Assembly (NCBI GenBank): GCA_046563655.1
Contig: CM102286.1
Coordinates: forward strand, 12,462,001 to 12,526,000
DNA from: Yuukianura sp. NJ FZ-2021
Taxonomy: Eukaryota
Direction of reading: 5' to 3'
Length of the DNA: 64,000 nt
A program made the translations under genes and the position numbers. Every line of letters begins with the position of its first letter. Positions within the stretch are counted from its first letter, which is position 1. Positions 1,918-59,107 of this stretch are shown piece after piece. The notes beneath the pieces were generated by a model. That model did not search any database, was not told the origin of the DNA, and saw only the letters and a program-made list of their open reading frames with translations.

Positions 1918-2437
1918 ATTCCAATAACACACTACTGCGGCTTTGGACTCGCTAAAAAATATTTTTAACAATCATTGTAAATTTAGTTTAATTACACAAG
2001 CATTTACTTCAGGAAGGAATTATGAAATTACTTTAACAAATAGAACATTCAGCGATTTTCGCACTATCGAAATTGGTCCCAAAAAATTTAAAGCCTCCCT
2101 AATTTGTCTCCATTTTTAATTTTTCTTCACGCAGACTGATTAATCCGTGTGTCAAATGCAAAAAAAAGTTTAAAAAAAATTGACAAAAAAGTGACCGCTG
2201 AGTGATGCTTATTACTAGTCATTTGATTGAACAGACAAATTTGGAAAATTAGACATCCACAATTACTAAATGTTCAAGTGAAGCTTAAGCTACCAAAATT
2301 ATGGTAAATGCAAAACCACGTTTCAAATTACAAGAATTAAAAACTTTGGACTAGAAAGGAATCGAGTAAAGGGCTTGGCTCACTTCTCTAGTTCAAAATT
2401 TTGGTGTCGAATTTTAAAAAAAACATGCCGTGCTTAC

Positions 2438-27500: not shown

Positions 27501-28270
27501 TGACAATATCGTAAAACTTAAAGGTCAAACCTTATTTAGCCGATAAAGGTTACTGTCCTTGGGTCCTTTCCCTGGTGTTGCCGAAGGAATGCATCCATCA
27601 GCAACTTGGCCTGGCCAAACCCGCAAATCCAGCATGCCCTGTAAATCCATTCCTTATTTAATCAACTTAAGACTCTCAAAATTCAGGAAACTTGAAAGTT
27701 GAAATTGAGATTTACTTGGCGAAAGACTCCATGTTTACCAAAAACAGAAATTGTAGTTCCTCCAACAGGAATGTAGTCTGACGGACCACCGCAGTCAAAA
27801 ATTGTGATACAAAATTGAGCGTTTTGCGGCAAATCACTGAATCTCATTGGTACGTGAATCCATTCATTCCAGCTGAAAACAAAACATTTGGAATAAAATA
27901 TCAGTTTAAACTGGTTTAAACTTAAACTCGGCGTACTTACTTCCATCTTGTTGTAAATGATTTGTAAGACGTGGAAACCGGAAGTGAAATTGGCTTATTA
28001 TCGGAGTATATCTGAACTATAACTTTTAGATCAGCGCATGCCCCATGTCCAAGGAATCCTGAATATTGCCAAATTGGATTCTCCATTAATTTTTCATAGT
28101 CAGGGCGTTTCACTTTGCCTTCAAGACTTCCTCTAAAGAAAAATTAAAAAATCGGAATTGAATATCATTTATAATTTGTTAATTATTACTGGTTTTTGCA
28201 CTAAATCTTACATTTTTATTTTAACTAACGAATCTACTTCACAATTAGGATATTTTCCTGTTGGCTCCAT
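24526..28270 (-). CDS. PIK3C3: Class III phosphatidylinositol 3-kinase Vps34
   Basis: Multi-exon gene from ATG 28270 ([26 protein letters not shown]). C2 domain [23 protein letters not shown], helical domain [13 protein letters not shown], kinase motifs [21 protein letters not shown] and HIDFG. Stop at 24526. Confidence 0.97.
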
Positions 28271-29595: not shown

Positions 29596-32370
29596 CTACT
29601 CATCTTCGTCACTTTGGTCTGACGCGGAAGGACTTGCGTTTGCGTCTTGCTCCGCTGCATCCAAGATGAACTCTGCAAAACGCTTGGACTTTGGGACGCT
29701 TGCCGGATGATGACGGCCATGCGATAAAAACCAGATTACTGCAGCCACGTGACTGCAGCAACCCAGTGTTCGGCTCCCTGTTTTGCAATCGCAAAACCAG
29801 CCAGTTACGTCTTCCGCTTCGACTCCGTTCGGGGTGTAGCGAACCCATACTTTCCTCTTTTGCCTTTTACAGAACCGTGACTGTAACTTGGCAGTGATGA
29901 GTGTTACATCCTCCTTGTAGATGAAAATCTCATAAGTCCCGTCTCCAGACATGTGATCCTTGGTGTACTTTGCAGCTAATTCCAGTTGATAAACACCGAG
30001 CGTTAGTTTGTGTAGCGCTGGCAATTCCAGTTTGGGGAAATCGGTAACCTCTGTGGAAGATGCTTTCTTCCACACAACTCGTCTTGTAGCCAACCTCTTT
30101 TCATTCACCTCAACCTCTAAATCATTGTTGATGGTAATTCGTCGAAGAGCCATTTCAATTAGGTGACTATGCGTTTCAGATGCAGAAAAAATTGGATTTG
30201 AGAAAGCGTTTGTCAATGCACAGGCAATTCGCAGAAACGGACGCAGCTTAGGGATGAGAGTATTCTTGACAACTTGGTCAAGAAAGTGGTACTTATTTTT
30301 GAGTCTGCCATGCACAGCTTCAACGATCCAGCGCAGAAGTGTAACTTGCCGAGATTCGTTCGCTTCTTCAGATGAGAACTTTTTCAGTTTTTTGGAAAGT
30401 AATCTTGGCATGTGGGTTGATACCGAGTTGCATTCCAATTCTGAGACGATATCTCTAAATCCTCTGTCCAAAATTGCGATGTCGCCGGCAGCAAGAAACC
30501 CAAGAACCGACTCATCTCCGCGTTTCATCATACTTCTTAAGATTGAGGAATCATTGTTGCCACCGTCTGCTCCATATGGACCTTCACATTCAATGATGTA
30601 TCCCGTACTCGTGACAATGGTCATGAATTTTGCTAGATGGCGCTGCTTTTGACCAGAATAGAGTAGCCGTTGGAGTTTGTGGTCGGATGGACGTTGAACA
30701 TATATGTATGTGCCGTCCATTATCAGTATTACACTGTCGTCATCATCGTGATGAAGTAGTTTCAGGAACGCTGGAACCGAGTGATGGGCAATGACTTCCT
30801 GCCGAGTGACATGTTGATAGCCAAGGAAACTTGGCACAAATGTTTGTTCCAAGACGTTTGCGACCGAGGTGATTGTTTCTGAGACTACCGCCTCACTTCC
30901 AACTCCAAAAATGAAGGCGATGATGCGGTTGGAGAAGTTGTGTCGTAGCTTCATCAGAAACATCGCAACCGCGTTTCGTCGGGATCTGTTTGTGCTGTTT
31001 TTAACGGAAGTAGCGTATACCTGAAAAACAAAAATATAAACGTTAGCTTAAGCTTGAATCGACCTTTAACTTAGCACTAGTGGCATTGACCTTTGACCTT
31101 GAGAACGAATTTCTGGATTCTGCCACCACAGCTTTAATGTGGTGACAAAAGGGACTTGATTTTTGGAAAGTGACCTTTTGACCCCTTAAGGGGTCAAAGG
31201 GTCAAGGACTTGGAATTTCGGGGTTCTGACGCCACAGCTTTAGTCCGGTGACCAAAGGGACTTGATTTTTGGATAGTGACCTTTTGACCCCTTAAGGGGT
31301 CAAAGGGTCAAGGACTTGGAATCTCGGGGTTCTGACGCCACAGCTTTAGTCCGGTGACCAAATTGACTTGATTTTTGGATAGTGACCTTTTGACCCCTTA
31401 AGGGGTCAAAGGGTCAAGGACTTGGAATTTCGAGATTCTGACACCACAGCTTTAGCAGGGGTACCAAAGGGACTTGTTTTTTGATAGTGACCTATAAAGG
31501 TCAAAGTCAGGAGAAACAACATTTCAATGTTGCTTACCATAAGCCTTTGGAAGTTGGCTTTGGAAATTCCAATGAGTAATTCGTAATCTGCATTGGTCAG
31601 GTCGGAATTCTCAGCAAAGTCTGTCCGAACGTTGGCATTAATGTCATTGGTCAAGAAATGGATCCATGCAGAAAGAGCTTCAGGTGGAGATGTTAGTCCA
31701 GACTGGAATGCTGTTATCTGCTGAAGCGCGTCCGATGTGAACTTCCCATCAATCAGATGATGTGCGCAAACTCTGTTGCGTGGGGAAACGAAAATCCTTG
31801 TCTTCTTCCAGGCATCATGTAAGGCCCATCCCGAAATCCTTTGTCTGCCTTTTGCGTCTCCACATAAAAAGCAGCATCGTTGTGTCGATTTAGTACGCAG
31901 AATCCCGGGAATGTGAACGTGATTGACATCGATAGAAGTTTCGTCGATGTTCATGAGTTGCTGCTGTCCATTTCTGCTGCCCAGTGTTGATGCCTCCATC
32001 ATGTAGGCTGGTGGTGGATTGTCTTGAATGGAGAGGTTGATATCGCTTTCTGATTGTATTGAATCTAAAACGTAAAACACGCATAAAAATTTTGAAGGGT
32101 TTTCAAAAAGTTTAATTGTAATTTACTCTGGTTGGTTGATGGTCTGAAAAACTTAGAAGCATGTGCTGGTCCAGCGTATCCCTTTCTTTTGAGTAGATTT
32201 CCGGAAGATTTTTGTATGTCGAGTGAGCATGATGTGCAAAGAACATCGTTTTCGTTGGCTCTAGCATCGACAGAAGTGTACAGAATCCAGAACTTTTCTC
32301 CGGTTGCTTTCCTCTTACGTTCTGAACCAGCGCAGTACCGAAGACAACGTGAACAGGTCCACTTAGGCAT
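29596..32370 (-). CDS. DDE_Tnp_4-type transposase with N-terminal Cys fingers, HTH and C-terminal SWIM finger (731 aa)
   Basis: Exons 32370-32127, 32064-31538 and 31020-29596 join in frame (2196 nt). Catalytic triad in IMDGTY, ILDRGF and RWIVEAVHGRLK. SWIM motif CDCKTGSRTLGCCSH. N-terminal CxxC...CxxC and CFLC...CAHH. Confidence 0.9.
31107..31493. repeat. 106-bp tandem repeat (~3.7 copies) inside transposase intron 2; full units carry a 22-bp perfect palindrome
   Basis: Units start at 31107, 31213, 31319 and 31425. TTTGACCCCTTAAGGGGTCAAA occurs at 31177, 31283 and 31389. Confidence 0.92.
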
Positions 32371-39791: not shown

Positions 39792-40185
39792 ATGACAACC
39801 GAAACCGACAGTGAGTTCCGGGCATCAGTGGAGTATATTGAACAACTTAGCGGTAATTACGGATTTAAGCTATGGGATAGGCAAACGTTTTTCATTTCTC
39901 GCCTAAAGTTATTTTTCCAGTTGTAAATATTTTGCGAACGTTTTTTTAGGAGCTCAGAAAGCACTAATTGGTAAATCGGAAATAAGTCGACTTTATGGGC
40001 TGCACAAGCAGGCGACCGTCGGGGATTGCAATGTACGAAAACCGTGGTTTTTTGGACGTGGAGACTGGAACGCCTGGAACAGACTGCGTGGTACCACCAA
40101 ACAAGATGCGATGGCTCAGTACAATGACATAACTTCCAATTGTAAATATAGAATTAGACAAACAGGGACAATGGGAGGAATGTAA
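39792..40185 (+). CDS. Acyl-CoA-binding protein-like (98 aa), not in the ORF track
   Basis: Exons 39792-39852 and 39950-40185 encode MTTETDSEFRASVEYIEQL...RLYGLHKQATVGDCNVRKPWFFGRGDWNAWNRLRGTTKQDAMAQY, the ACBP signature. Confidence 0.85.
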
Positions 40186-40920
40186 TCAAGATTAGGTTTA
40201 AAATAGCGTTATTTGATTGTTAATCTGTTCTTGCCAACCGTCCTAAGCGTTATCGCCTTTGTACTAGTAGCGGTATTTAGATAAATGTTTGACTGCTTTA
40301 ATTGAATTTTTGCACAAATTGCTCACTCTTGTTGGCCATTCCCAATCGAAAAATAAAATATTAACTAACAAATTATTAATAGATGAATATGCGGATTATG
40401 AAGATGATTGTAGTACAACAATACCTAGCCTCTCATGAATATCAAAAATAGTTTTAAAACGTCTATTTAAAATTTAGCTTTTGCATTAAAAATGGACTTA
40501 AAATATTTAAGTCATATATCATTAAGCAAGAATTGCGAAATTCCAATTTCATTTTTTCTTGCCCAACCTCATATGCAAAGGCGGGAAGCATTCGTGTCGT
40601 GTCGGTGTCGGCTACGCCAATTGCCGAATGCCGAGTCAAGTCGGCAAAATAAATAAAGTAGCCAAGCCAAGTGAACATGAACAAACGAGAAGAGGGTACG
40701 GACAACCGAAATTCTTGGACATCAGCTTCTCCGTATCTTGGGTATTTTACGTTAAGTTTGGAACGACAACTTGTAACCGGTACTATTTCGCTTAAACAAT
40801 TGAATTTCATCCTGAAATTGAACCGTAAGTACAAAACTGTTAAGCGTTAGTCACCTGGGGTATGTAAGTTTTAACGAGTGATGGTTGTGTAGGTCACAGC
40901 GTCAATTGCCACACTGAACA

Positions 40921-43900
40921 ATGAACCGAGGTGGAAGACGACGAACACATGATGACGAAGATCAAGGTGAATGTCAACACATACATAAGTGATTATTTAT
41001 TGAATGTACTAATTAAACGAGATTGATAGGTGGGCGATATAATAAAAAACGCCGAACGAGCGAACCAGTTGACGAAGACCCTCTGCGGACATTGATCTAC
41101 GATGTTGGGGAGAAGGTAAACTTTCAGAAATCGAAATCACAGTCGTTAAAGAATCTGCTGAACTTAACCGGTACGAAGTATTCAATTCCTAGAAGTTATT
41201 TGTGTATTCTTTTGATGCAGACGAAAGCATCAATTGAAAGCAGTATTGAAGGTGTTTCCAAAATGCTGGAGGTGGACTTGTCAACTCACAAAGCCAAAAT
41301 CCTTGAAACTCTGTTGGAAGTTGTGACCAAGCAGCCAGAAAAGTGTACAATTTATTCAACATTGATTGGACTTTTGAATGCCAAAAACTACAATTTTGGA
41401 GGAGAGGTAACAGACGACATTTCATATGACCATGCCATTGGGGGTGGAATGAAAATAATATCGTTCAATCTTTCACTAATAGTTCATTGAAGCTGTGGTG
41501 AAAGATTTCAAGGAACGTGTGAAGGCAGGAGAATGGACCTTAGCGGAGTATTGCCTCCGGTTTATTTCGGATCTTGTCAATTCTCATGTCATTTCTGCAA
41601 CATCGCTACTTCAACTTTACGACGCGTTTATGGATGTATCTTTTGACACGAATTCCTCTCAGGTACTTTATGCAGAGATAATCAATTTTTATTAACCTCG
41701 GATAACGTCGAACATGTAATTCATGTTTGTTTTGCTTTCATTAGGGACGTCGGGATTGGGTTGTCTTCGCCATACTCAATTGCCTTCCCTGGGTTGGCCG
41801 GGAACTTTATGACAAGAAACAGCAAACAATGGAGCGTTTGATGATTACGATTGATAATTACATGAAAAAGAGATCCAAGAAGCATCATAATTTGCTGCGA
41901 GTTTGGCTCATTGATGATCCACATCCACAAGAAGAAGTGAGTCGTCTAAAAATTAATCCGACTCGAATTCAAGTAATAACCTTGCAAAGACTCAAGCAAA
42001 ATATTTCCTTTTTTGTTTCAGTATTTGGAATGTCTCTGGGCTCAGATTGAAAAGTTGAAAATGGACGGCTGGAATGAGAAGCACATTATTCGACCATATC
42101 TGGCTTTTGATAATGTGCTTTGCGAAGCATTGCAGCACATCTTACCGCAAATTACGCTCCCGCAACCACAAGGATCTATTTCGTACCCTCTTCCGTCTGT
42201 GATCTTTCGCTTGTTTGACTACACTGACTGTCCTCAGGTAAGTTACACTCTCAATTAATGGAGCGTATTAATTTAACGTACTAAAGACATGGCAATTTGA
42301 TAACAGGGGCCTGTTCTTCCTGGAGCTCATTCCATTGAACGATATCTTATAGAACGCGAGCTGAAAGCTATTATTACCAAGCATCATGAAGACAGACGTG
42401 AATGGTATGAAACGAATCATTACGAGAGTTATATAAAACACTTCAACGTCGCGAAACGTTTTTACAAAAATACATTTTGGTTTGTAATGTTTTAGTGTCA
42501 ATGCACTTTTTGATTATCCTCACATTCATCGAGTTCCGTTGGATCACATGATCGTTGAGGTCATTTTTGGAGAATTGTTCCGCTTGCCAGTACCGGAATA
42601 CATCCAAGTTTGTTACGCTGCAATTTTGCTTGAACTGTGCAAGAAGCAAAGCGGTTTAATTTCACAGGTAAATTCAATATTTTATCAGTTTATGCTTGAA
42701 AACGAGCCTGCTTGTAACTTCAATTTCTATTTTGTCTAGGCTCTTGCACAAGCAACAGAAATGTTGTTTGACAGAATTGAAACTATGAATGTCGCATGTG
42801 TGGACCGTTTCGTTACTTGGTTTGCTTATCATCTGAGCAATAACCAGTTCCAGTGGAGTTGGGATGACTGGGGAACCGTCGTTAACTTGGATCCACAACA
42901 CCCTAAGCCCAAATTCGTCTCTGAAATTATTCAGAAGTGCATCAGGTTTGTAGTTACTACTTCTGTTGTTCTATCTCACATTACAGGTTTGCTGATTTTG
43001 TTTCATCTTCTGCAGGCTATCTTACTATGAGCGTCTCGCCGAGTTATTGCCGAAATCTTTGGAGACCTTGCTACCACCACAAAGCGAGGCAATTCTCAAC
43101 TTTGACAAGAATATGCCCAAAACTGTTCCAGGTTTGGCACAAGCTTTGCAACTTCAAACTGCTTTCCGAGAGAAGGCCAGTGTTGACACGATTCTGGAAA
43201 TTCTACTTCGTGTTCCCAATCCACTGGATGCTGATGTCGAGGATGACGAGGCTGAACCAAAAACATGGAGCTTCAATCCACTGGCTATAAATGTCTTTGC
43301 ACAAACAGTGTTCATGCTCGGTTCCAAAACTATCTCACACAGCCGTTCTGCCATCTTACAACATCAACACGTTCTTCAAGTAATTTTTCAAAAATACGAC
43401 GTCGTGAAACTTGAATCCATTGCTCTTTAATTATTTCCAGAAAATCTCCGCTGATTCAACTGAGCAAGCTCACCTTTGTATTTTGAAGGCAGCTTTCGAA
43501 GTTTGGAAGAAAGACACACAAATGCTGGGTATCGTCGTGGATTTACTTTTGAAGTACAAGATTGTGTCTTTCGTCTCTGTCGCCAATTGGATCTTTACCA
43601 AGGATATGCAAGCTGAGTTTACCCGGTAATTAAACAGAACGTTTTTATGTCGTTACCGTAAAACTTCTAATGAATACCGGCCTCTATTAGACTCCGGGGC
43701 CTTATAAACAAACCCCGGAGGTAAAAGGCAGGATTTTGAAACAACCGGGCTTTCATTGGAACTTTTACGGTAACAGTATGCTTCGTTCTAATTGAAAATG
43801 AAAATGAGTGACACTGTTTCAATCTGGTAGGATTTACGTTTGGGAAATCCTTCACATGACAATTCGGAAGATCAACAAGAACATCGATCGCTTGAGTAAG

Positions 43901-44391
43901 CAATTGGCAGAGGCTAAGGAAAAAGTGCGAATGGCTGGCAACAGTTCCAGTGACAGTGAAACAGAAGAGAAGAGTCATTCAAAGGACAAGGGGATTCTGG
44001 ACATCCCAACGGAGGACGAGATCAATTTGATGGAAGAGAAATTGGAAACGCAGGAGGGAGAAAGGAAAGACTCGTTCTTGATTATCTTTCAACGATTTAT
44101 CATGATACTGTCGGAACACATTGTTCACTGCGACACAAATGGAAAGCCGTTTAACACAAGTTGGTATCAGTGGACTGTTGGGAGACTTCAAGAAGTATTT
44201 CTTCAGGTACGTTAAAACAGAAGCTTATGTTTATAAACAGCGATATAAACTTATACTTCCCAACATTTTTTGTTTAGCACGTGGAGCAAGTGTACCAGTA
44301 CAGCTCAACATTGGAACAACTTCTGTTCACGCAGGATTTGGATAAAAATATTCTGGAGATCTTCGAACAGTTCAAAGCATTGAAGGCTTAA
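40921..44391 (+). CDS. NCBP1: Nuclear cap-binding protein subunit 1 (CBP80)
   Basis: N-terminal bipartite NLS (RRRTH...KKRR), [89 protein letters not shown]. Stop TAA at 44391. Confidence 0.97.
43656..43770. mobile_element. 115-bp Tc1/mariner-pogo-type MITE in an NCBP1 intron
   Basis: TA|CCGTAAAACTTCTAATGAA ... TTCATTGGAACTTTTACGG|TA: ~19 bp TIR with a TA target-site duplication. Confidence 0.8.
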
Positions 44392-44892
44392 TACTGAGCA
44401 GCATTCAGCTGTATAATGCTTGTAGAAAACCGGATGTACCGGAATTGCTTTGTTTCATATTTCTTGTACTTACTAAATTTTTTGTTAAGTATATTTATAG
44501 ATGGGCTATTTAGAAGTTTACATACAGCGTAGCTGCCTGTAGCTGCGTCGTTTTCCAATTTACTGTGAACATAATAAAGCACAGTAAAAGGTTACGGGAC
44601 TAGCCTAACTTGTTTTGGTTTTAATTGACCGGGTTTTTTGTTTTATGCACCAAATGAAGGCAGTAGTAGTAATAATGTCACTGTGATTAGACAATGTTCC
44701 AAGAAAGATGCTGCTCAATATTTGAAGCATCTCTCATAGAGATTATAAGTGTCACTTTGGCTAATAAACTAAAGATTGTATTGACAAGTCAGAAGTCCAT
44801 CATTCCGGAGTGTTTATAGTTTGGCAGAAGAACTGAGCAGAGCAGGGCTTTGTGATGATTAATGTTTAGTGATGCTGGATGGGCGTGGCCAG

Positions 44893-47062
<2,170 letters not shown>

Positions 47063-48707
47063 CTTGTTACAAGTGTATGGACTTCTGATGACAATGCTAA
47101 AAACTACTTGGACTTCAACGTTTTAGTGTTGTTTGGGTACTCCTGTTGCGTCGAACTTCAAGCAGCCACTTCCTGAAACATAAGTTTTAGAACAAAATTT
47201 TAGATTTAGGAAATGTGTTGAAACTTTTTTTTATAATCACTGATGCAGGTAAGGTTTAGACATAAGCGTGTTTCTGCAGTTGAAAAAAAAAATGCTGCCA
47301 ATTCCGCTATTCCGCAGCAGCAACTTACTTTTATCTAGAACAATCTGAATGCATTACAAATAAAAACGCCTTTCATGCCGCGCCTACTTTTCAATTTCGC
47401 TTTCATCTTTGTAAAAAAAAAGTAAACAATTAAATTAATAACTTACCTATCAATCTCATTCGAGCATGAGACATGCAGAGAGAGGCACAAAGTGGAGCAA
47501 TGAATATTCGTTGTTTTTGATGAAAAGGAAGTGGGCGACGAGGACGACGATGGTGAATCTTTTGGTTTCACGGACACATTTAATTTGTGGTGATGTGGAT
47601 GGATATGATTTGATTGTTCTCGTACTTGTCCGTAACTGTAACCACCGTAGCTGTAAACTGTACACAAGTTGTTTAGTAGAATATCCGGAGTCCGTCCGGA
47701 GGCACTCCGACCAGACAGGAGGATCCCAGACAGACAGAAATTGCGACGAAGATGAGAGGAGTGAGTGACTGGGGGCAGAGGCGTAGTAAAGCGTAAGCTG
47801 AGAGGAGTGTGGGGTGGGAAATGGACAATCAACTCTTAAGAGGCCACAATGAATGAGATGATTCTTATCGTAGCGGTACTACAGAAACCTCGGAATGCTT
47901 GATGGCCTTATAATGTCCGTCTGTCTGTCCTTCCGATGCTCCGAATTTTCTGGAGAACTGAAAATTAAACATTGCCAGTTATTACGATTACGGCAATAAA
48001 ACACATATATCCATGTAGTACTAGTTGTAAAACGGTACCCAAGGACATGATAGGAACGGCGATGTTTGTGGTAACTACGGTGATTGCGATAAATCCTTAG
48101 GGTTCAGTACATACTTCGAGTTAGCGAGCGGTGGACGTCCTTTTCGACATGCATAGTGCGTCTTTAGGTGCCTGCAAAGAGAAAACAAAATAATTAATTG
48201 ATTTGCCATAACTAAATGGCTACAAAACATTTGCCTACATTCCTTAGATATATCTTGAGAGACAGTGTAAAATTCGTGGAAAATCGGATGAAATCCGAGT
48301 CGTAGCTCCCGTTGTTCCGTTATCCCCATTCGTTCATAGCTCGGTGTTCACAGAAAGCTTAAGTACAACCTGCTCTGATGTTGCGCATCAATGAAGTGGA
48401 CTTTGGATTGAGAATGTGATGAAGTCATTTTATGACTTAACGCTTCTCTTGTTAATTTGAAGACGCTATTGGTCTTAAGTGACACAAATTCATTGTAAAT
48501 CCCTGTGTTGTTGAATTACCATTCTATATTATGAGTAGAGCTGAATGCATGCGCTGGAAATTATGATTTTACGATTTATGAAACTGAGTAGTGTTTGATT
48601 TATTTAAACTACGGAAAAATTAAAAACTTACAGTAATAAACGCCATCTAGTCTGTAACTTTAGTACATTAGAAATTAGTGAGTGTAAATTAATTAATTCT
48701 ACCTCAT

Positions 48708-49696
48708 TCAAGCGATGGTTGTCACGCCCTCGTCTTCGTCAAAATCCATTTCTCCTTCCATGTCGCGAGTCTTTATATCCCCATCGTCGGAGACTCCCAT
48801 TATGATGTCAATCATAAGTGTAAGTGATTCTAGATCCCTTGGTCTTCGATTATCTAATGTATAGAATCTTACCAGAGCGTAATTGTCTAAGACCTGCCCA
48901 ATTGCACTTGTCAATTTAAGAAACTTGGAATTCCACTTGGTTTCAACCTCGTTCATCAAAATAGTTTCTGCCTCTGGTTCCAGATATGAGTGGAGCCTCT
49001 TCTTGTCCTTTTTGCTCATGAGATCCATCTTCGTTAAAACGGAAACATGAGGGATTTCCAGATTCACCATAGCACTTAATGCTGACATTGCTCCAGCGAT
49101 GAACTTTGAGCCGTCAGTTAGAAAGTGAGCATCAATGGTATAGACTCCGCAAACTCGGAATGACCATGACTCCAGCGTTTGAATAAAGGTCTTCATCAAT
49201 CCCAAATGAGTATAAAGTTCGATTTGCCCCGGACAATCGAAAAGGTAGTAATCACCATCAACCTCTTCACCCAACTGCTCAAGTAGCCAGTCCATGTGAT
49301 CCATCAAGTATCTGTTGACACAAATCTTAGTTAGGTTTAATGAAAATTAATTCAATTACGTTTTAAATCTTCGGTGATAATGAACTCACTGCATGCAATA
49401 CAAAAGGGCCCCATTTGGACCCAACTTTAGGTCTTCATCTTGCATGACGTCCTTCACTTCAATTAGATCTCTAATATCCACAACAGGCTGGTAGCTGAAA
49501 TATTCTGCAGCGGGATCGAGGTTCACCACCCGAATATGTCGCTGTGTATCTAGAGCATGTCGTTCCATCGTTGAACAATACGTGCTCTGTAATAAACAAA
49601 TTCACCAAATACAACAGTCGTTACTAATTATTGATCTTTAGTTAATTTTACCTTTCCACATCCTGCCGGACCCATTACAATTTGGCCAAAACGCAT
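48708..49696 (-). CDS. GPN3: GPN-loop GTPase 3
   Basis: MRFGQIVMGPAGCGKST, VVNLDPAAE, LGPNGAL, YLFDCPGQIELYTH, KFIAGAMSALSAMVNLEIPH, LTKMDL. Three exons. Confidence 0.95.
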
Positions 49697-50362
49697 CTTG
49701 CAAAGTTTCCACTGAAAAATCTTTTGTTCCTTATTACTTCCAAGTTGATACTATCTGTCTAGCCGGTGATTCGCTCCTCGTCCCCGTTTCTATCTGTCTT
49801 GATTGCCACCCATGTACAGATTCTTGTAATCCCAACCAAAAACAAAACCGATTAATTAATTGTGACTAATTGTAAGAAGGGATTAAAAATACCAAATGAC
49901 AGTAAAGTAATGCACTAAAAATCACACCAACAAAACAAAAAACAAATGACAAAACGTCCAATGATTGTTCGCGCGCTTCCATTCAAACGCCAGAGGTATT
50001 CCAAGCCGATGGTATTTCTGGACATTAATTTTATTACAAAAGCAGTCCGTTGTTATTGTTCTTAAATTATAATTCCAGCTGGCGCACGATTGTGCCAGTG
50101 CCAGTAGTAGGTTGGTATTGTTTTTATTTAAATCGATTGGCAATGGTGTTTAGCTAGCCGTCTATTTCCGGTTGGTAGTAATGTAACATTGTTCACATTG
50201 GCCAATTAATTTGCTTGCAAAATTTCAAAGGATTAACAAAGGATCAATAATCGAAGCAAGGTAAAGTTACTAATTTATTGAACGAACATATGATTTTATA
50301 TTTTCAACATTAGCAGTGCCTTGACCATGTTTTCCGATTGTTTTTGCAGAACGTTGAAGACA

Positions 50363-51758
50363 ATGATTGAGATCACAGCACGATTGATGCAAGGAGCGTA
50401 CTTGGCGGGGGAGATGATTGAATGCGCCATTACATTTAGATGCCCGTCGCCGCCAGCGCTCGTCCAATCCCAAGGGAACGAACAGGAAGAGATTCTTGGG
50501 TTAGCTAGTGCACAGATTTACTGTCGATGTCAACTGAATCAAGCCCATGTTGCAGCGACACAAACATACGACAAGGCTGGTTTGGGTCCTGAGCATGGCG
50601 TTGGTTCCAAAGCAACGTCATTTGCGCCATTAGTAAATGATGACAACGCATCCAATGGTGGAACAGCGGGAAGCAATGCGGCAGTATCTACTTCTGCAAA
50701 TCGAGTTGTTTCTACTACTAAACCGACGATTCTTTTTTGTGATTTACGACTTCTGCCAGGAGAGTCCAAAACATGTAAGGCGTTTAAAAGTACAAATGAA
50801 TCGGTAATATTTAATCCTAAAGTTGCTAATCTGAATTCTCTTTTTAGTTTGGTACCGAGAAATCTTGCCAGTAGAAGGGCCTCCTTCATTCCGAGGTCAA
50901 ATTTTAAAATACGCCTACAAACTGACAATTGGGACGCAAAGGATACACTCGCACATTCGCTTGTTGCATGTCCCGATCAAAGTTTTGGTTCTACAAGGTA
51001 ACAGCACGGCTTGTATCACAGATTTCGGATGGGAAGCCCAAAAATCGATTCTGAATTGTTGTTTTGTTTCAGAATTTTCAGACGCAGCCATCTTGAACGA
51101 CAGTGAAGAGTTGACACCGGCGAATCCATTCTTATCCGACCAGGAAAAAGAGTCACACTCCTCTGACACAGCTTTTCAGATTCTGCAAGTGGTCACTTCC
51201 CAGAGGAACCAGAAATTTTACAACGTCACTAATCAACGTGGACACGTTGTCAAGTTCTGTGTGTTCAAACAAGCCTATAAACTTGGGGAAGACATTGTAG
51301 GATCCTTGGATTTTTCAGAGTCAACTGTCCCTTGTATTCAGTATGCCGTGTCACTCCAAAGTGTAGAGGAACTATCTCCTGAATATCGAACCGAGAAACA
51401 GCGGAACGCCATTGCCACTTACTCCAAGTTCCATGAGATGGTCATTGGCTTCCAACAGTCCCATTTCGTCATTCCAGTGCCCCTCCATGTTACTCCCAGT
51501 TTTCACACGGACTTGATCCATCTCAAATGGAAACTTCATTTTGAGTTTGTCATCAGTACATCTTCCGTTGCTCAGCTTGGACTCGTGCCGTCTCAATCCC
51601 CAGACACTGGAACAATGGATGGAAACTACTGGCAAGCACCAAGTACTGTCAACATTGAAACAATGGTATGGGATCTCCCTATTAAGCTTTATCCAAATCT
51701 GCCGTCGTATTTATCTCAAGGTTTACAAATGGTCACCCAGTTCAAACAGCGCATTTGA
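50363..51758 (+). CDS. RGP1: RAB6A-GEF complex partner RGP1
   Basis: Exons 50363-50774, 50848-50997 and 51073-51758 encode MIEITARL...YLAGEMIEC, ASAQIYC, PTILFCDLRLLPGESK, GPPSFRGQ, YKLGEDIVG, WKLHFEFV and ETMVWDLPI. Confidence 0.93.
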
Positions 51759-52270
51759 ATTACACGTAGGTTAGTAAGCTCATGATTTTTTTTAATTAAT
51801 CAACTAATTCACTATAAAATTTGACATCTAATAAGTATAAAAGACGCCAAGACGCGTTGATGTTCCTTAGATGTTAGATAAACATAATTTGCTTCGTGTC
51901 AATGAAATTGAAATCGCTTACTGAAATACTTATCTTCGCGATCCATAGCGAGCGTCGTAAAGTTATGAGATCGTTTGGCCAATGGAATGGCCCGTTTATT
52001 TGTTTAATCGCTTAAGGCTACACTCTCAAAAATACTTTGACAAGGACGGACAAATATTGAACTTGGAAGTGTCAGCATGCGCGAGGGATGCTGAATGTGT
52101 AAAAAGTGTTTGGTAGGTTCGAGGTGATTATAAATTAATTAGAGAATTTGTGAATTAGTTGTTGCCACACGATAAATCAGGGAATTTAGAAATAGGTAGG
52201 AAGGAAGAACGTTTAGAAAATTATGACGCGATGATTTAGAAAGTTTCGCTAGGTAGGCTGCTAATCATTT

Positions 52271-55200
52271 CAAAGTTCCATATCTGTGACCCCGCTACCC
52301 GCATTCAGCTGGGATTGGCTGTTACAAAAACAAAGTCAGTTCTAATTGACAGTTAAGATTTTCTAGTTACAAGACCACTGAACTAATCAAGAAAAGATGA
52401 GTGATGAGACTTTACCTTTCATCCAAGCCGATCATCTCTCGGTCTTTTTCTCCTTGAACGATTTGGAGCAAGGCTGTAGCATCTCTTTGAACCTCCGGTT
52501 TGTGTTCCAGGAGATGCTCGATTTCAGATTGAAAAGAATCTAGAATTGCTGGGTAATTAAGAGCCACGGCCTTCAGCATCATTATAAACGGCTGTGCACG
52601 TCCTTTCTCCGTAATGAAGAATCTTCTTGCATGCTGCACTATTCTGGAAAAGTGTCCCACGTCTAGATCACGACAGACCCTACAACAAAATAAGAATATA
52701 GGATAGATGATTTGAACAGTTATGTATTGAATTAACTCACTTTAGTATTAATCCAAGCCCCTCAGCTGCCCATTCATAGTACTGCATTGAAGAACTCGCC
52801 AGAAACTGACCAACAGTTCCAATAAAAGTTCTGAGATCCATTTCGTCACAGGGAAGGATCCCTGCCTTCAGAACTGCAATCACCACCAACAGTCCTAAAG
52901 TCTTGTCTTCCAGCTCGAACAAGTTCAAAATGACTTCGTGAGACTTTGCAGAAAACTTCGGTTTTATCCACGCCGATACCACTTGCCTGCAAGAAGTCAA
53001 AATAACTCACTTCAAATATGCCAGTTCAAGTAAGCAAACAAACGAATCAAACGTTTGGGAAACGTCGACACCCTTACGTCAAAAGTTCCAAATTCAGTTG
53101 CTGGACTTCCTTCTTTCGATAGAGTACTTTGCGCGAGCAGTAATTGAAAAGCTCTTCAGTTGGTGACAGTTCAGTTGAAGATGTCGCTGTAGGCGTTGGT
53201 GTGATATTCCAGTCCAGAAGCATCTGAATCTACAACAGTACACAATTACAAATACGATCCAAATTACTAAAAAGTTGTCACTTAAATTGTAATTTATGAG
53301 TCAGTTTCCTTACTAATTCTCGTTCAAATGAATTCAGACTTGTAGAATTTTCTGTAGGATGATTTTGAATACTTCCGGAAGTGATGACAAGAATGATTGA
53401 TTTCATGAACTCATCTCCGTATGGTTTGAAAGTATCTTGGCTATTGACAACCAGTGCACACAGAAACAGTTTCACATTGACAGGAACATTTTGAGTAGTA
53501 AACTTGTTCAGAAGTGCTTTCATCCACAAAGGCATCGTAGTTGTGCTCTTGACCTGTGAACGAACATTGAAACTCAAGGTGAAACCTGTGTTTTATTAAA
53601 TAGTAATAATGTATATTATGAAAAATAATTATTTTATTACCTCCAAAGATTTCAAGTAGCACACCAATTGGGTAATCCTCTCCAAACTAATATGACTTTG
53701 CAACAGGAAATACCCTCCTTTCTTTGTCGGAGGTAACAATACACCACCATGCTCTTGTGAATGTGAATTAGAACGAGAATATCCTCCAGTAAAATCGAAT
53801 CTGCCAGCATCAGTAGAAACTCGTCGTGTTGCTTCAAACCTTGACCTGACACAAATTCAAAAAATTAGTCAGATTTTGTTAAGCTAAAGAACAACAATAT
53901 TGCACTCACCTTTTGAAACGCTGATTTGTGTTTAAACTGTCGGCTCCATCTTGACTCGAATGTTCCAGTTCTAACTCCGAAGTAGCCTCTTTGGTGATAG
54001 GAAAAAAAAGCTCCATCTCAGCGTCCACAATTTTCTCCCACACTCGATTACCCTCGTAGTCTTCCAGTAGTAAACCTTGGATTAAATTCTCAGGATACTT
54101 CGAAGTGACTAAAGTTGTGGCAACGGCGTTAAATGCGGCTGCATTGAAGTCATACTGTATTTTCCTTGTTCTTTTGTTGGTGGAATCCGCGATGAACGGA
54201 TTGGCCTTTATGTTCTTCCAAATCTCAACGATTACTCTGACGACTTCGGCCGGTTTTGTTGGTGGTACTGGTAGGTGACGAACATATTTTTCATGTAAAG
54301 TGACACGCAGAAAATCACGGTGACTGGATAACGCTATGACTTCGTAAATGCACAGAGCCGTCGTTTTCGACAGAAAATCGTTTTCTGTGTTTCCTTTCAC
54401 CGTCTAAAGTGTGAACGAAAATGAAACCTTTAGCGAAATACTTGGTTCCAGAGAAATACAAATCAAAAACTTACTGCAGCAGTTAGGATGCTGAATATAT
54501 TGTCTTTGGCAAATGTTTCCAGATACTTTTTCTGCAGGTTTGACAAGCACGGGTGTAAACAGAATTTGTACAGGAGAGAAGCCGGAGCTGGATTTCCGTT
54601 TTTTATCACTTTGTAGATAGATTGGCTCAATGAAAGACCAGCTTCTTGCGTACCAATTTCCTCTGAGTTCTGAACGAATCTTTCAAAAACTTCGCGCGTT
54701 TTCAGTAATCCAGCATAATGATGACACCCAGGAACACATTCATCCTTTAGTTCCGTGTGATATTGTTGGATGGACGTAGACAATGTGAAAAAGAATCTGG
54801 AGAAAGAAATTAGCAGTTCCATGCTGTCAGGGTAACCTCGACACAGGACTATCACTTCTTCCAAAATTTGCATCATAAGGAATGCTTCCGAATCCTGTTC
54901 CAGTAGCCTTTCGTTTATCACTTCAAGGTTCTCCCTAAACACAATTTCGAAAAAGCGGAAGTCCATAACTCGACTCATGAATTGGATAACCATGTTTACA
55001 AGTTAAATTGATCATGTTAACTTACCAAATCATTTTGCGTATTTCAGCGCTGGATGAAAGGCCAAAAAGTCGTAAAAACTCTACAAACATCATCTTCTCC
55101 TGAAGCTTTTTGCGTTTACTGTTCATCGTTTCTATCCACCACTTGCAAAGGTACTCGGAATTTGCTACCGACTCTTCGTGCAACAGAACCATGCCAGATA

Positions 55201-57495
55201 AAGTTCGGAGAACAAAATCCGACTCAAAGTTGGACTCAATCCGGTCCCACACAGAAATGATGGCGTTCACTAGACTTGGTGCGTACCTTAACACACAAAA
55301 ACTTATTTAGAGAAGAATTACTTATTATTTATAGCATTCTAGTTATATATTATTATATTTATTTTATAATTTGGCAAAAGTAAAACTCACCTCTCACAAA
55401 TCCTTTCGTTTTCGCTCAGTGATTGAATCAGTCTTGTAACTAAACTTCCAAGTTTTTCATCAGTTACACGCGAAAGAGTTTCTTTGAAATCCACCGGTTC
55501 ATCGGCAGTTAAATTCGGCAAAAGAGCTTCCGCTTCATCCGTTGAAAGTTCCTCTACGTAGCCTGGTCCACGTTCTGCCTTCTTTATTCTAAAATCAATT
55601 GGAGAAATAAAATGTAATAGAATTGATATAAAACATTGAATAAGCCGTAAACTTACTCCGTGATGCATTTCTCCAGTCTTGCAAACAGTTCCGGTTGCAG
55701 TTCATTCTTTAATTGTGGTTCAAATGGAATAGCTGTAGTGATGAGACGAATGCTGTCCACGGAAACTTCAGAAATTGGACTATCCGTTTCGTTGTTTTCA
55801 AAAATTCGGACAAGTTCGGCAACCAAGTGCTAAAAGGAAAAGGAAAAGTATCAAATAAAAGTAATTCAAGTAGAACTTAAGTTTCAGAAAGTTATAAATG
55901 CCTTCACTCTCATGGCATGGCTTACATTGACGACATTAGTTTTGAAAATGACACTGTCCGCATCAAGTTCTGTTTGCAGCAAGCAGTCACAAACTACTCG
56001 GAGGAACGACATTAGCGCTAACTTGGCACGGTCGTAATCTTCTCGGTAAGTAGATTTACACCAAGTTATTAAATCTTCAAACCACAGTTTATACTTTCGA
56101 AACAATGGCTGCTGGAAGAGGGGTCCATTGTGTTCGATCAACGTTAACACGCCTGTTTTTTTATAAATCCATTACTAAATACAAATCAAAGAACTAGGGA
56201 TGTTTGAAGTTATAAAAGTGGAAACATTACCTCGCTGAAATTCCCGACGCTTAACTTTCTTCGTAGATCTTCCGTCGGTATTGTCAAACGTGATGGAGAT
56301 TTTAGGATTTATGATTTTCTGGAACATTTCTTCCAAAAGCTCAACTTGGCCGTTATACTCTTTGCCATAGGCTCGTAAGAAGAAGTCCATGCCGCGGATT
56401 GATCCCTGGAGAATTGACGCTTCTAGTTGCTTTTGCGCAGAGTCTACCTGTACACAAAAAACAGCAATGCAATTAGAATATTAATCTCAAATGGAGCATG
56501 TATTCCAAGTGAATGACTTAATGATCTTACTTGATTTTTGATACATTTCATAAGGTACAGCATGAGTTGGTCTCGTGTGTCCTTGCGGAATACTTGATCC
56601 TTGAAAATGTAAGCAATTAATCCTAGGAGCTGGAGCATTTCCCCTCGCACGGAAGGCTGAAAAGCGGATTTCTCCGAAGACAAAAGTAAAGACCGATACA
56701 AATCTGATGCGTCAAAGTCAAAGGCAGAAATGAGTCCTCCGTAGTTTTCAATTAGCGTAACAAGGCACTGAGCCGCAGCGGTTTGCAGTCTCGCTGATTC
56801 ACGTGCACTTCTCCAAATGCAATTGATGGCGTCCTGAAAACAGATAGGGAACACTATTCTGTTGGACTTATACATGCCAGAAGTCTCAAGAGTTAAAAAA
56901 ATACCTTCAATTTTATACAATGCTTGACAACAAGTGAACTGTCGACAGCTTTATTCCCGAGTAAATTCTTGATACTTGACATCGCCACTTCCTTAGGTTC
57001 ATCAAAAGGCTTTTGCCCAATTCGACTCTTCAAAAACCTGACCACACCAACTTTGTCGTCAAAGATTAAGTCCAGTATTTGATCTGCAACAACAGAAACA
57101 ACTGTATTACGTAATGCCAATTCATTGATGTCCTGTTGAGCCAAGTAACACTTAGGATCCAATTTTCAGTGTACCTATATCCGCATAATTTGCTACGTTT
57201 GCCATCAATTCCTGTAGTTGCGTCAAGAAATGGAGCGCAACGTCTTTTTCCTGGCTTGCGTTAATGCTGAGAATGACATTCCGAAACTCCACGTGACCAT
57301 TCTTACCGCATGATGGACCGGCACCTACAAAATGAAAAGAAAAAATTTAGAATGTAAACAAGCATTACGTAATTATTATTGCCCTCTACCTCCCTCAGAC
57401 GAAAGTTCAGCAACTTGTGTTCTAGTTCCTCGGCCATCTTCGTTACCATTACCGTCGCCATTCTCCAGTTTGCGTTTAAAACTGGAAGAACTCAT
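52271..57495 (-). CDS. DNA-PKcs (PRKDC)-like HEAT-repeat protein, ~1,300 aa, internally shortened and lacking FAT/kinase domains
   Basis: About 17 in-frame exons from ATG 57495. Segments resemble remembered DNA-PKcs sequence: LIFDDKVGVVRFL, AKLALMSFLRVV, FNAAAFNAV, VWEKIVD...FFPI, RFDFTGG, MPLWMKALL...NVKLFLCALVVNSQDTFKPY, AAEGLGLILK. Best last exon 52318-52271 ends ...DMEL*. Confidence 0.75.
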
Positions 57496-57857
57496 CGCTC
57501 TTCATCAAAAAATCAGTCAATCTTCAGGTATTTACCTAGTATTTGTGGAACAATCAGACGCAACTGGTTGGTTACTGCTCGAGCGTCTACTTGCACTCGA
57601 GACTGGACAGTGGAGGGAGAAAAACAGCTGATCGTGATCCGTTACCGGTAAGCTTTGCAAAACAAAAGATCGCTTTCATTGTAAAGGACTCATTATGCCG
57701 TACAGTTTGATGTTGATTAATAATTAATAATTATTAATTAATCGGATTATTCATTTTGTTTTTACCAATTCGTAAAGTAATTCAGACACGAGAATTTTAT
57801 CGAAATCTTAATGCGCCTTTCAAAATCTCGTTGTTAAACCTTGTACAACGTTCCGAT

Positions 57858-58721
57858 GGGCATACCTACTCCTCGCCCATTGGGGCTTACACAAGAAGTG
57901 TGGAGGGTCTTAGGCAAGAAAGTTGCAAAACACCAAAAGTTTACCCACACTTAAATTTCGAAGTTAAATAACTGATACGCAATATTTATGTTAATTTTTT
58001 CATATTTTGCGCATTCCTTGTGCATCCCCTAAGCAAAAAGTAAATTTGGAAGAAAAAAAAATTGTTTCAAGTTTTGAACCTTGAAACAACTCTTTCCATT
58101 GTATTTCTTGAAACAAAAGAAGAGAAAAACTATTTTCAGTTTGGACTGTAGAAAAACTCTACTACTGGAAACAAAGGGGCCCTCTTCTAGTTTTTTTTCT
58201 ATATTGGGACGTTAGTTTTGCTGGTTTGTAAGTTTTTTCAAGATTTCGTTCCAGTTCTTCAGTGGGGGTCGTAACTTGTCAAACAATGACATTGTTTTGT
58301 CGAAAAATAATTTTCTAGAATGTCATTTGTCAGAAAAAAAGAAATCCATATTTTCTAGTTTTTATATTTTATTTTATTGAATAATAATTATATTTATATA
58401 AGGGCACGCTGCCCTCCGGAAAAGAACTGAACGAAATCTACTTACTTTAAAACCTTATAACTTCTTAAATTCTCAACCTGCCATTATTGGCAGGTGTATG
58501 TTTGTCTTTTATATTAAAATTCAAAAAATTTTAAATAAATATGAAAAACATATTTAGATTATTAATTTATATTACATCATTTATAATAACAAATAAACGT
58601 TATACAAATACTTAATTCTTCAATAGTACGCGTGTTTACTTTTTCGTGTTTTGCAACTTTCTTGCCTAAGACCCTCCACACTTCTTGTGTAAGCCCCAAT
58701 GGGCGAGGAGTGGGTATGCCG
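57858..58721. mobile_element. Non-autonomous DNA transposon/MITE, ~860 bp with ~80 bp TIRs
   Basis: 57859-~57940 (GGCATACCTACTCCTCGCCCATTGGGGCTTACACAAGAAG...) is the reverse complement of ~58638-58720 with 2-3 differences. AT (or GAT) flanks both ends. The interior is AT-rich and non-coding. Confidence 0.88.
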
Positions 58722-59107
58722 ATAGGGTACACCAATTCTGAAATTTCAGCATTTTAGTGGCTTAGTATGTTTGTGAGGCAAGCTGACACTTGACAGCATT
58801 AAGTCAAGTCGCGTATTAAGCGCGCCATTTACAGATTTCTCAAGGAATTCGAAAATTTTGAAACCATTCAAACGCATGTTTGCACTACACCCTGTTTCCG
58901 AAATCGTTACGCACATGGGCAGCATTTTAATAACCTAATTTTCCCTACTCTCTTCCTTTTAATAGTTTTAATGGCGTTGTTTAAAAGTGTATTATTTGTA
59001 AATACATAATTGTAATTTCTTCCATTACATCTTCAAAATTATCTTCATGGCTCATACTAAACAATTCACATTTCATTTCAAGTAATTTGCTCAGGAGAGG
59101 TTAAAAT

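Follow-up and report, generated by a model that had tools for sequence, protein, structure and literature searches.

DNA-PKcs is usually viewed as a kinase whose catalytic head is served by an enormous cradle of HEAT repeats, and the locus described here raises the question of what a gene might do that encodes parts of the cradle and no head at all. The gene lies on the minus strand at 57495–52270 of the window, by which we mean the whole 64-kb stretch of DNA analyzed. On balance, we lean toward the explanation that it is a descendant of a springtail-type DNA-PKcs gene maintained by selection, and that its product, an all-HEAT protein of 1312 residues, is a putative non-catalytic binder of Ku70/80.

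In the splice model, 17 exons are separated by 16 introns of 61–97 nt, all with GT-AG ends, and the spliced coding sequence of 3939 nt encodes 1312 aa followed by TGA and is free of internal stops, whereas 84 and 71 stops interrupt its two alternative frames. Retention of an intron would introduce an in-frame stop in 15 of the 16 cases and a frameshift in the remaining one. Exon 1 (57390–57495; residues 1–35, with the ATG at 57495–57493) encodes an N-terminal extension of low complexity that contains a KRK motif, and its frame is the sole one that reaches exon 2 (57175–57324; residues 36–85, placed by the splice model) through a GT-AG intron; because exon 1 is without homology support, this start is provisional. 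Exon 17 (52270–52318; residues 1297–1312 and TGA) is also without such support and provisional, and if exon 16 is read through or the acceptor at 52342 is used instead, the frame also closes within 12 codons. Exon 2 was likewise counted among the exons lacking homology, the profile alignment described below starting at residue 66. A gap of 511 nt separates the stop codon from the end of a convergent ORF (50835–51758), identified as RGP1 by the Pfam Rgp1 model (E 2.2e-29), and the stop codon is followed ~262–270 nt downstream by poly(A)-like ATTAAA and AATAAA signals (51995–52008, minus strand), which a pattern search returned as consensus matches only. No tRNA was detected when the repeat that lies upstream of the gene was scanned. 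An earlier, sequence-only reading of this DNA had anticipated the main features of the model, namely about 17 in-frame exons encoding ~1,300 residues without an internal stop, and an end so close to the convergent RGP1 stop (~500 bp) that FAT, kinase, and FATC domains cannot be accommodated at the locus.

When compared with a profile of 32 full-length DNA-PKcs proteins (4049 positions), the spliced protein gave two collinear domains with E values of 1.3e-48 and 6.6e-69, so that its resemblance to PRKDC greatly exceeds what chance would give; the profile matches of individual exons are likewise collinear. The first domain, or N block, pairs profile positions 21–390 with residues 66–452 (roughly human 30–395), and the second, or M block, pairs positions 1532–2344 with residues 484–1273 (roughly human 1580–2395) without a break. 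Residues were mapped to human and bird numbering with hmmalign, block by block, and placement with MAFFT --add was discarded because it smeared the short protein across the full-length alignment. The nearest relatives of both blocks are the DNA-PKcs proteins of the springtails Orchesella dallaii (P0131; 3895 aa) and Allacma fusca (P0127; 3938 aa). By blastp, residues 62–380 align with residues 21–343 of the Orchesella protein at 34% identity (E 2e-51), and residues 523–1293 with its residues 1489–2261 (E 1e-28).

The N block holds only the first ~390 positions of N-HEAT (150 bits against the 32-sequence profile). Its exon 3 (56905–57083; residues 86–145) matches profile positions 27–88 and, by tblastn, residues about 33–113 of the Nematostella and Gigantopelta proteins; exon 4 (56531–56833; residues 146–246) matches positions 106–202 with 33 bits and Orchesella 93–222 (tblastn, E 7e-17); exons 5 (56231–56447; residues 247–318) and 6 (55926–56152; residues 319–394) match positions 190–250 and 260–330, the latter with 33 bits, and are covered by one tblastn match to Orchesella 207–343; and exon 7 (55657–55829; residues 395–451) ends the block near human 395. 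N-HEAT, which is DNA-PKcs_N in Pfam, occurs in DNA-PKcs alone; the Pfam model (PF20500, 810 positions) is matched weakly over positions 66–160 by exon 4 and 221–275 by exon 6, with single-exon scores of 15.6 and 15.3 bits against a gathering cut-off of 26.1.

In the M block, exon 9 (55026–55301; residues 518–609), which carries the end of CC1/2 and has an alternative in-frame acceptor at 55287, corresponds to profile positions 1567–1661 and to Allacma 1501–1585 (tblastn, E 6e-5), and exon 10 (54475–54934; residues 610–763), also M-HEAT, to positions 1681–1801. A phmmer search of the PDB with the 179-aa ORF of exon 10 did not match any DNA-PKcs, including the human protein, and the family profile is therefore needed. 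There follows NUC194 (DNAPKcs_CC3), described as a signature of DNA-PKcs, with its first part in exon 11 (53910–54403; residues 764–927; positions 1848–1949, 24 bits) and its best-conserved core in exon 13 (53314–53553; residues 997–1076; positions 2066–2141, 61 bits); between them, exon 12 (53641–53845; residues 928–996, from the splice model) encodes a stretch rich in Ser and Arg that contains an SQ site at 957 and lies where the human protein has its PQR cluster. Exon 13 matches Pfam DNAPKcs_CC3 (PF08163) over positions 300–366 of 389 with an E value of 1.6e-15 and 57.4 bits, the cut-off being 28.9, matches human DNA-PKcs 2121–2172 in the PDB (E 8e-7), and retains MPxWM...NVKLFL...FKPY. The end of CC3 and the start of CC5 are in exon 14 (53078–53229; residues 1077–1126; positions 2141–2189), the start of CC5 continues in exon 15 (52741–52986; residues 1127–1208; positions 2191–2278), and exon 16 (52416–52679; residues 1209–1296; positions 2297–2345) is the final one with homology, ending near human 2395.

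The two blocks meet at exon 8 (55391–55588; residues 452–517), which is separated from exon 7 by a normal 68-nt intron and in which the first ~30–40 residues form an acidic coding linker without homology and the second half belongs to the M block. Alone, this exon scores only 1.3 bits against the profile; in the spliced protein, the second profile domain opens at residue 484, and the blastp alignment with Allacma opens at residue 493 (Allacma 1476). The sequence-only reading had assigned the exons down to 55657 to the DNA-PKcs N terminus, and this is indeed where the N block stops. It had taken the exons from 55286 as M-HEAT of residues ~1600–2400, an identification that holds with the range refined to about human 1580–2395, but the start was misplaced because exon 8 is already homologous. 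The internal loss is in frame, as had been claimed, but it amounts to about 1140 profile positions, or some 1100 residues, rather than ~1,200 aa.

Unmatched in the protein are profile positions 391–1531 and 2345–4049. The internal gap removes the rest of N-HEAT, the forehead, and most of CC1/2 (human 892–1289 onward; PF20502), of which the last ~150 positions before NUC194 are kept, and none of the 2112 ORFs of the window contains a counterpart of profile 391–1531. Of the region equivalent to human about 2210–2800, the protein retains no more than the beginning of CC5; the ABCDE loop, YRPD motif, FAT, kinase, and FATC, all located after ~human 2395, are absent. The frame closes within 16 codons of the final homologous exon (profile end 2344), no FAT, PI3K/PI4K-type kinase, or FATC is encoded in the gene, and a profile search of the ORFs recovered none of the missing parts elsewhere in the window. 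On this gene model, the predicted protein cannot be a kinase. A PI3_PI4_kinase match at 24834–25629 was rejected as the missing kinase, its PI3K_C2 and PI3Ka (PIK) domains being those of a lipid kinase. This lipid kinase gene, at 24.8–25.6 kb, lies downstream of the mini gene on the same strand and encodes the only PI3K-type kinase of the window.

Compared with human DNA-PKcs (PDB 5w1r, 7k0y), in which the two blocks include NUC194 (1815–2202), about two thirds of the protein (396–1580 and 2396–4128) is absent, together with all catalytic and ABCDE autophosphorylation elements. The springtail proteins share the order of segments with the mini protein, and N-HEAT and NUC194/CC3 are found in both, whereas CC1/2, full CC5, and the kinase, as well as the FATC detected by Pfam in Orchesella, are theirs only; springtail residues about 411–1460 and 2262 to the end have no equivalent here. 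Conversely, MPxWM of NUC194 is kept in the mini protein and lost in both the Orchesella and Allacma proteins. TRRAP/Tra1 are kinase-inactive relatives among the PIKKs, with TRRAP retaining an inactive kinase fold, and the kinase-less variants of human PRKDC arise from the full gene by splicing; all are kinase-independent members or products of the family, while in the mini gene the loss of FAT and kinase is genomic and total. Lees-Miller et al. (2020, PMC8021618) describe lepidopteran DNA-PKcs-like proteins in which N-HEAT and M-HEAT 1550–2650 with NUC194 are the only recognizable HEAT parts, and sections 3.3–3.4 of that paper describe the forehead and the YRPD motif as absent. Going by that description, nearly the same HEAT parts are kept as in the mini protein, but the lepidopteran proteins retain FAT-kinase-FATC with the residues for activity and the mini gene has none of these. 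Together with the lepidopteran proteins, the present gene suggests that hexapods have repeatedly remodelled the DNA-PKcs gene at the same domain boundaries.

The selection of parts bears on function. What is kept, the first ~390 residues of N-HEAT and M-HEAT of ~human 1580–2395 with the whole NUC194, connected by an acidic linker of ~30–40 residues, are the parts of the cradle base that face Ku and the DNA end in human DNA-PK; what has been lost, apparently together, is whatever forms or underpins the catalytic head, i.e., the forehead, ABCDE loop, YRPD motif, FAT, kinase, and FATC. Because the head-supporting parts are gone and the Ku- and DNA-facing parts are kept, non-catalytic binding to Ku70/80 appears to be the most likely activity. 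In the account of the human structures in PMC8549938, NUC194 docks the C-terminal helix of Ku80, with helices 1912–1923 and 1955–1970 as the likely contacts. Residues about 815–877, in exon 11, align to human 1912–1970 in what is a weak alignment (24 bits), and all of NUC194 is present, in agreement with the earlier claim that the retained M-HEAT part includes the Ku80 docking region. By transfer from these human structures, we infer that the mini protein is a putative Ku binder, which would contact Ku70/80 at DNA ends both via NUC194, where the C-terminal helix of Ku80 would dock, and via N-HEAT, and might act as a scaffold, an end-protector, or, if the genome has a full-length DNA-PKcs, its competitor. 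The internal loss would be explained most simply if a stretch of genomic DNA, beginning in one intron and ending in another intron or in an exon, had been deleted, joining exon 7 to the present exon 8 with the phase preserved.

If a selected protein made only of the N-HEAT start and the part of M-HEAT with NUC194 is real, it would be a natural separation-of-function allele, with which one could test whether Ku docking and end binding serve any purpose independent of phosphorylation, and it would define a minimal Ku-binding module of ~1300 residues, whose expression and study would be far less demanding than those of the kinase with its 4100 residues. Should a full-length copy coexist, the two would be a candidate natural regulator-and-enzyme pair for end joining. 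A bolder version, which we find doubtful, is that the gene is the only DNA-PKcs descendant of its lineage, a springtail-like hexapod having shed the kinase head, forehead, and YRPD motif and retained by selection just the base facing Ku and the DNA end, and that the distant relative P0002 hints at an old gene type of multiple lineages; the cradle base would then have a kinase-independent cellular function.

The gene might instead be a young relic of two recent deletions, with no function and with its frame still open for lack of time, the work being done by a full-length copy elsewhere or by none. We consider this unlikely. That a single gene has suffered two large losses and sits on a long branch would suit a relic, as would a 6-nt indel next to the stop, which suggests a loosely constrained end, but both junctions are clean and in phase, and all 16 introns have intact splice sites. 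The polymorphism data, read from a listing of the first 40 of 658 differences and 12 of 117 indels in one sample, possibly the one from which the window derives, also argue against it. Six of the seven listed coding SNPs in the gene are synonymous, against a share of 0.22 by expectation (binomial P 6e-4); as the listing holds the first 40 differences, substitutions are sampled in the last two exons only, with four of four synonymous in exon 16 and two synonymous and one replacement in exon 17. RGP1, read in the same way, has 15 synonymous SNPs out of 20. All seven listed indels within the gene span are intronic, although introns account for 24.6% of its length (P 5e-5; 9e-4 when the indels are counted as five events). 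Mostly synonymous SNPs and intronic indels, a pattern as in RGP1, thus point to a selected rather than a dead gene, and this small listed sample, which looks constrained, supports the earlier argument against a decayed pseudogene.

Divergence points the same way. In FastTree trees with SH-like support values, the Allacma and Orchesella proteins are the partners of both the N block and the M block (1.0 and 0.999, respectively), which sit on branches of 1.23 versus 0.81–0.95 in springtail DNA-PKcs for the N block and 1.96 versus 1.41–1.47 for the M block. The ratio, ~1.3–1.5, is similar in both blocks at about 1.4-fold, and, judged from branch lengths, this is moderate acceleration rather than free decay. 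In the M block, just 20–22% of residues are identical to those of the springtail proteins, compared with 33% between the springtail pair, and this could reflect relaxed constraint.

More favorable to a relic is that protein, representative, and metagenome searches did not find the same architecture in other organisms. In a word-based search covering proteins of 178/183–2000 aa, none of 78 candidates for exon 13 and none of 94 for exon 4 scored, which is weak evidence that an annotated protein of the mini type is absent. An exhaustive representative search with exon 13 gave 22 matches at E up to 0.001, none above 41% identity; seven of the nine scanned with Pfam had DNAPKcs_CC3, and P0001 and P0022 were rejected by Pfam scan as unrelated chance matches. 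Metagenome scans with exon 10, and with an alignment of exon 13 and P0002, yielded no relatives among 209 and 286 pattern matches, and a limited literature set included no relevant paper on springtail (Collembola) DNA-PKcs or kinase-less DNA-PKcs. P0002 is a distant relative with the same derived insertion and exon end.

Improbable to much the same extent is a function outside end joining, such as a nucleolar or RNA-processing role tied to NUC194, in which Ku would not be the partner. The evidence of constraint would serve this idea as well as it serves the putative Ku binder that we prefer, and the strong divergence of the M block (20–22% identity) is in its favor; however, the best-kept stretch is the family-wide NUC194 core, and an unrelated role would not require both Ku-facing parts to be retained together.

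We regard it as very unlikely that the gene is one half of a split DNA-PKcs, whose FAT-kinase-FATC half, perhaps with the remaining M-HEAT, is encoded elsewhere, so that two chains form a working kinase. The truncation within M-HEAT and the presence, 511 nt away, of a convergent gene of unrelated kind fit a rearrangement breakpoint, but the forehead (human 892–1289), which sits under the kinase head in the structures described in PMC8549938, is gone, as is ~2395–2800 with the YRPD motif, and little is therefore left for a head to sit on. With none of the missing parts in the 64-kb window, where the only PI3K-type kinase is a lipid kinase, the split-gene idea is weakened by what the locus encodes.

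It is extremely improbable that the organism does have the absent coding sequence (3.4 kb and >5 kb) and that this dropped out through an assembly or haplotype-collapse artefact, even though large genes are often misassembled or mispredicted and PMC8021618 reports prediction errors in ~40% of the public DNA-PKcs sequences on which it drew, since the internal junction is an ordinary 68-nt intron and a coding linker, and an independently built contig of a diverged second haplotype (run X5, record 25; 9763 nt) is collinear with the window over 50287–57853 with no joint inside the gene. This contig differs from the window by 335 mismatches and 122 gap letters (~4.4% divergent), and, because it is collinear over the whole locus, misassembly, which the sequence-only reading had raised for both breaks, is found at neither. 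The sequencing runs listed for this stretch were five DNA runs, with none of RNA. In X5, a joint of low depth that links 55369 with 58525 (one contig, side 22) was taken as a repeat artefact. In X4, which represents another organism and another study, contig pieces extend over 52074–52656, across the 3′ end of the gene.

Stop-to-stop reading of 50–60 kb of the window yielded open segments that form a chain on the minus strand, and splice sites placed by hand and by script, followed by a check of the model, join them into a gene of 17 exons at 57495–52270. All 16 introns are of the GT...AG type and 61–97 nt long. The coding sequence of 3939 nt comprises 1312 codons plus TGA, with no internal stop in the coding frame versus 84 and 71 in the other two frames, and retention of an intron would bring in an in-frame stop for 15 introns and a frame shift for the 16th. 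The G+C content is 42.9% in the exons versus 18–40% in the introns. ATTAAA and AATAAA signals lie ~265 nt 3' of the stop codon, and the convergent RGP1 ORF (plus strand, 50835–51758; Pfam Rgp1, E = 2.2e-29) ends 511 nt from the gene. The sequence-only reading, which had counted about 17 exons, 1300 aa, and 500 bp to the RGP1 stop, was correct in these respects.

By its similarities, the gene is a derivative of the DNA-PKcs gene. Exon 13 matched Pfam DNAPKcs_CC3 (NUC194) at 57.4 bits, above the cut-off of 28.9 (E = 1.6e-15), and aligned with human DNA-PKcs 2121–2172 in a PDB sequence search (E = 8e-7); two DNA-PKcs_N matches of Pfam, in exons 4 and 6, were both below threshold. An exhaustive HMMER search with exon 13 gave 22 matches at E ≤ 0.001, and among the nine that were scanned with Pfam, seven contained DNAPKcs_CC3 and two were chance matches. 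A set of 154 DNA-PKcs proteins was collected from a Naegleria protein (P0009), 120 of them among those listed. When the spliced protein was aligned with PRKDC orthologues as proposed earlier, here by blastp against the listed DNA-PKcs proteins longer than 2000 aa, two full-length springtail proteins stood far ahead of all others, each matching it in two collinear segments: residues 21–343 and 1489–2261 of the Orchesella dallaii protein (P0131) correspond to residues 62–380 (34% identity, E = 2e-51) and 523–1293 (E = 1e-28), and residues 7–377 and 1476–2258 of the Allacma fusca protein (P0127) to residues 52–421 and 493–1280.

A profile of 32 near full-length DNA-PKcs orthologues (4049 match positions) recognized exactly two domains in the shortened protein. 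Profile positions 21–390 match residues 66–452 (150.5 bits, E = 1.3e-48), the N block derived from N-HEAT, and positions 1532–2344 match residues 484–1273 (217.9 bits, E = 6.6e-69), the M block derived from M-HEAT; the two correspond to about 30–395 and 1580–2395 in the numbering of a bird sequence, which is within a few residues of the human numbering at the one point where this could be checked. The passages of a review (PMC8549938) on domain limits assign N-HEAT to 1–891 of human DNA-PKcs, the forehead to 892–1289, NUC194 to 1815–2202, YRPD to 2772–2784, FAT to 2801–3579, the kinase domain to 3580–4099, and FATC to 4100–4128. By these limits, the shortened protein keeps the first ~40% of N-HEAT and an M-HEAT stretch with all of NUC194, and is devoid of the rest of N-HEAT, the forehead, 1290–1580, the ABCDE loop, YRPD, FAT, kinase, and FATC, which bears out the kinase-less, internally deleted architecture described in the sequence-only reading. 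The NUC194 signature of DNA-PKcs is thus present and marks the protein as a homologue of DNA-PKcs, but because the forehead, YRPD, and kinase features are absent, it should not be classed with the DNA-PKcs kinases. The N block stops exactly where exon 7 ends, and exon 8 starts with an acidic stretch, ~30–40 residues without homology that precede the M block; therefore, the internal junction consists of intron 7 together with the beginning of exon 8. An earlier placement at 55657–55286 had the N block end with exon 7, as found here, but the junction itself is slightly different.

Mis-assembly as the source of the losses finds no favor in the sequencing data. Five DNA runs contain the stretch, and four of them were aligned to the window. 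One contig of run X5 (9763 nt), which represents a second haplotype or individual ~4.4% different from the window, is collinear with 50287–57853; its 335 mismatches are accompanied by 122 gap letters, too few to conceal 3.4 kb or 5 kb of exons. Pieces of X4, which comes from a second organism and study, span 52074–52656, across the stop codon. Because X1, X2, and X5 are from one sample that may be the source of the window, their support is that of another haplotype, not of another laboratory. The only joint listed inside the gene, low in depth and short-sided, was discounted.

Another explanation is that the missing parts are encoded nearby. None was found in the 64-kb window in an unfiltered run of the profile against 2112 ORFs of ≥20 aa from all six frames. 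Positive scores went to 13 ORFs of the shortened gene, in collinear order, and to exon 8 at a noise level of 1.3 bits, and elsewhere only to two ORFs at 24.8–25.6 kb. The latter were ruled out as a PIKK, since their gene has PI3K_C2 and PI3Ka and is a lipid kinase. This lipid PI3-kinase gene (minus strand, 24834–27994; PI3K_C2, PI3Ka, and PI3_PI4_kinase domains) is matched by DNA-PKcs kinase domains in tblastn and could pass for the missing kinase. The minus strand downstream of the shortened gene is occupied by a GPN-loop GTPase gene (48.7–49.6 kb), an AKT-like kinase gene (44.9–47.0 kb; PH, Pkinase, and Pkinase_C), an ankyrin gene, a transposase gene, and the PI3K gene, and upstream lies a Ulp1/SENP-type protease gene on the plus strand (62.8–63.2 kb). 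Because introns in the genome are 60–100 nt long, it seems unlikely that one of >50 kb connects the gene with a kinase exon farther away.

The possibility that the gene is dead, against which the intact frame had been cited earlier, meets further objections. The haplotype comparison is a small sample, limited to the first 40 differences out of 658 and to 12 indels out of 117, with substitutions from exons 16–17 only. Among the differences listed, six of the seven coding ones in these exons are synonymous (binomial P = 6e-4 for a synonymous share of sites of 0.22). Since neighboring RGP1, read in the same way, is similarly rich in synonymous differences (15/20 among those listed), the shortened gene behaves in this small sample as an ordinary constrained gene. 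All seven indels listed within its 5226-nt span are intronic, although introns make up 24.6% of the span, and one 6-nt indel adjoins the stop codon. FastTree trees of each block and of the two combined placed the protein as sister to three springtail proteins with support of 1.0 (N block), 0.999 (M block), and 1.0 (combined); both blocks fall in the springtail clade and thus have a common origin. Its branch is ~1.3–1.5 times as long as those of the springtails (1.23 versus 0.81–0.95 for the N block and 1.96 versus 1.41–1.47 for the M block), and the acceleration is thus moderate. The argument against a dead gene holds. The NUC194 core retains the family-wide motifs MPxWM, NVKLFL, and FKPY; MPxWM is retained in nearly all other eukaryotes aligned, while it is lost in the full-length springtail proteins P0131, P0139, and P0127 of Orchesella and Allacma. 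Counting against function, the M block is only 20–22% identical to the springtail proteins, which are 33% identical to each other, and no gene of the same architecture was found elsewhere in protein searches with exons 4 and 13, a representative search, and two metagenome scans.

The nearest relative of exon 13 is an 82-residue ORF on a short public contig (P0002), which is 40% identical to the shortened protein over 75 residues and closer to it than to any full-length protein in the set. The two have a derived insertion, NH..E..TSLNSFE.EL, in common, and the homology stops at the same exon boundary as exon 13. This suggests that the same NUC194 type is present in at least one other lineage, a distant one because the identity is only 40–41%. 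As for known variants, the sections on Lepidoptera in Lees-Miller et al. 2020 (PMC8021618) describe putative DNA-PKcs sequences in which only N-HEAT, M-HEAT 1550–2650 with NUC194, and FAT-kinase-FATC are moderately conserved and from all of which the forehead and YRPD are missing, with prediction errors in ~40% of the public sequences used. By that account, the HEAT parts kept in Lepidoptera are almost identical in extent to those of the shortened protein, and forehead loss thus has a hexapod precedent, whereas FAT-kinase-FATC is kept in Lepidoptera and absent here. A precedent for genome-encoded loss of FAT-kinase-FATC was not found in the literature searched, and the supplementary alignments of PMC8021618 may hold further truncated forms.

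In human DNA-PKcs, as set out in the structural passages of PMC8549938, the C-terminal helix of Ku80 docks to NUC194, probably at 1912–1923 and 1955–1970, and the forehead sits beneath the FAT-kinase head. The docking segments map to residues ~815–877 of the shortened protein, in exon 11. All elements related to the head are gone from the gene, whereas those that face Ku remain, a pattern that, by analogy with the human enzyme, makes non-catalytic binding of Ku and DNA ends the most likely role; such a protein might serve as a scaffold, protect the ends, or compete with any full-length enzyme. The sequence-only reading, which had proposed a scaffold or decoy, or one half of a split DNA-PKcs, stands in part, namely in its architecture and its case against a dead gene. 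The protein is Ser-rich at the position of the human PQR cluster, and this stretch, which includes an SQ site at 957, might be targeted by other PIKKs, although this is speculative.

Elsewhere in the window, three minus-strand ORFs at 1–1365, 4803–5867, and 5912–6547 (455, 355, and 212 aa) had no Pfam matches, and the first runs past the end of the window. An ACBP gene (within 39907–51758) and an NCBP1-like MIF4G gene (41.0–44.2 kb) lie on the plus strand. The intact transposase ORF of 483 aa (minus strand, 29599–31047; DDE_Tnp_4, HTH_Tnp_4, and a SWIM finger) is of the PIF/Harbinger type and possibly active or domesticated. A MITE-like element of 874 bp (57853–58726), with 86-nt terminal inverted repeats that are 95% complementary (57853–57938 and 58641–58726), lies 358 nt upstream of the ATG of the shortened gene, in its likely promoter region. 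The element is missing from contigs of X1, X2, and X5, in which 57853 is joined to 58726 or 58761, and is therefore an insertion polymorphism.
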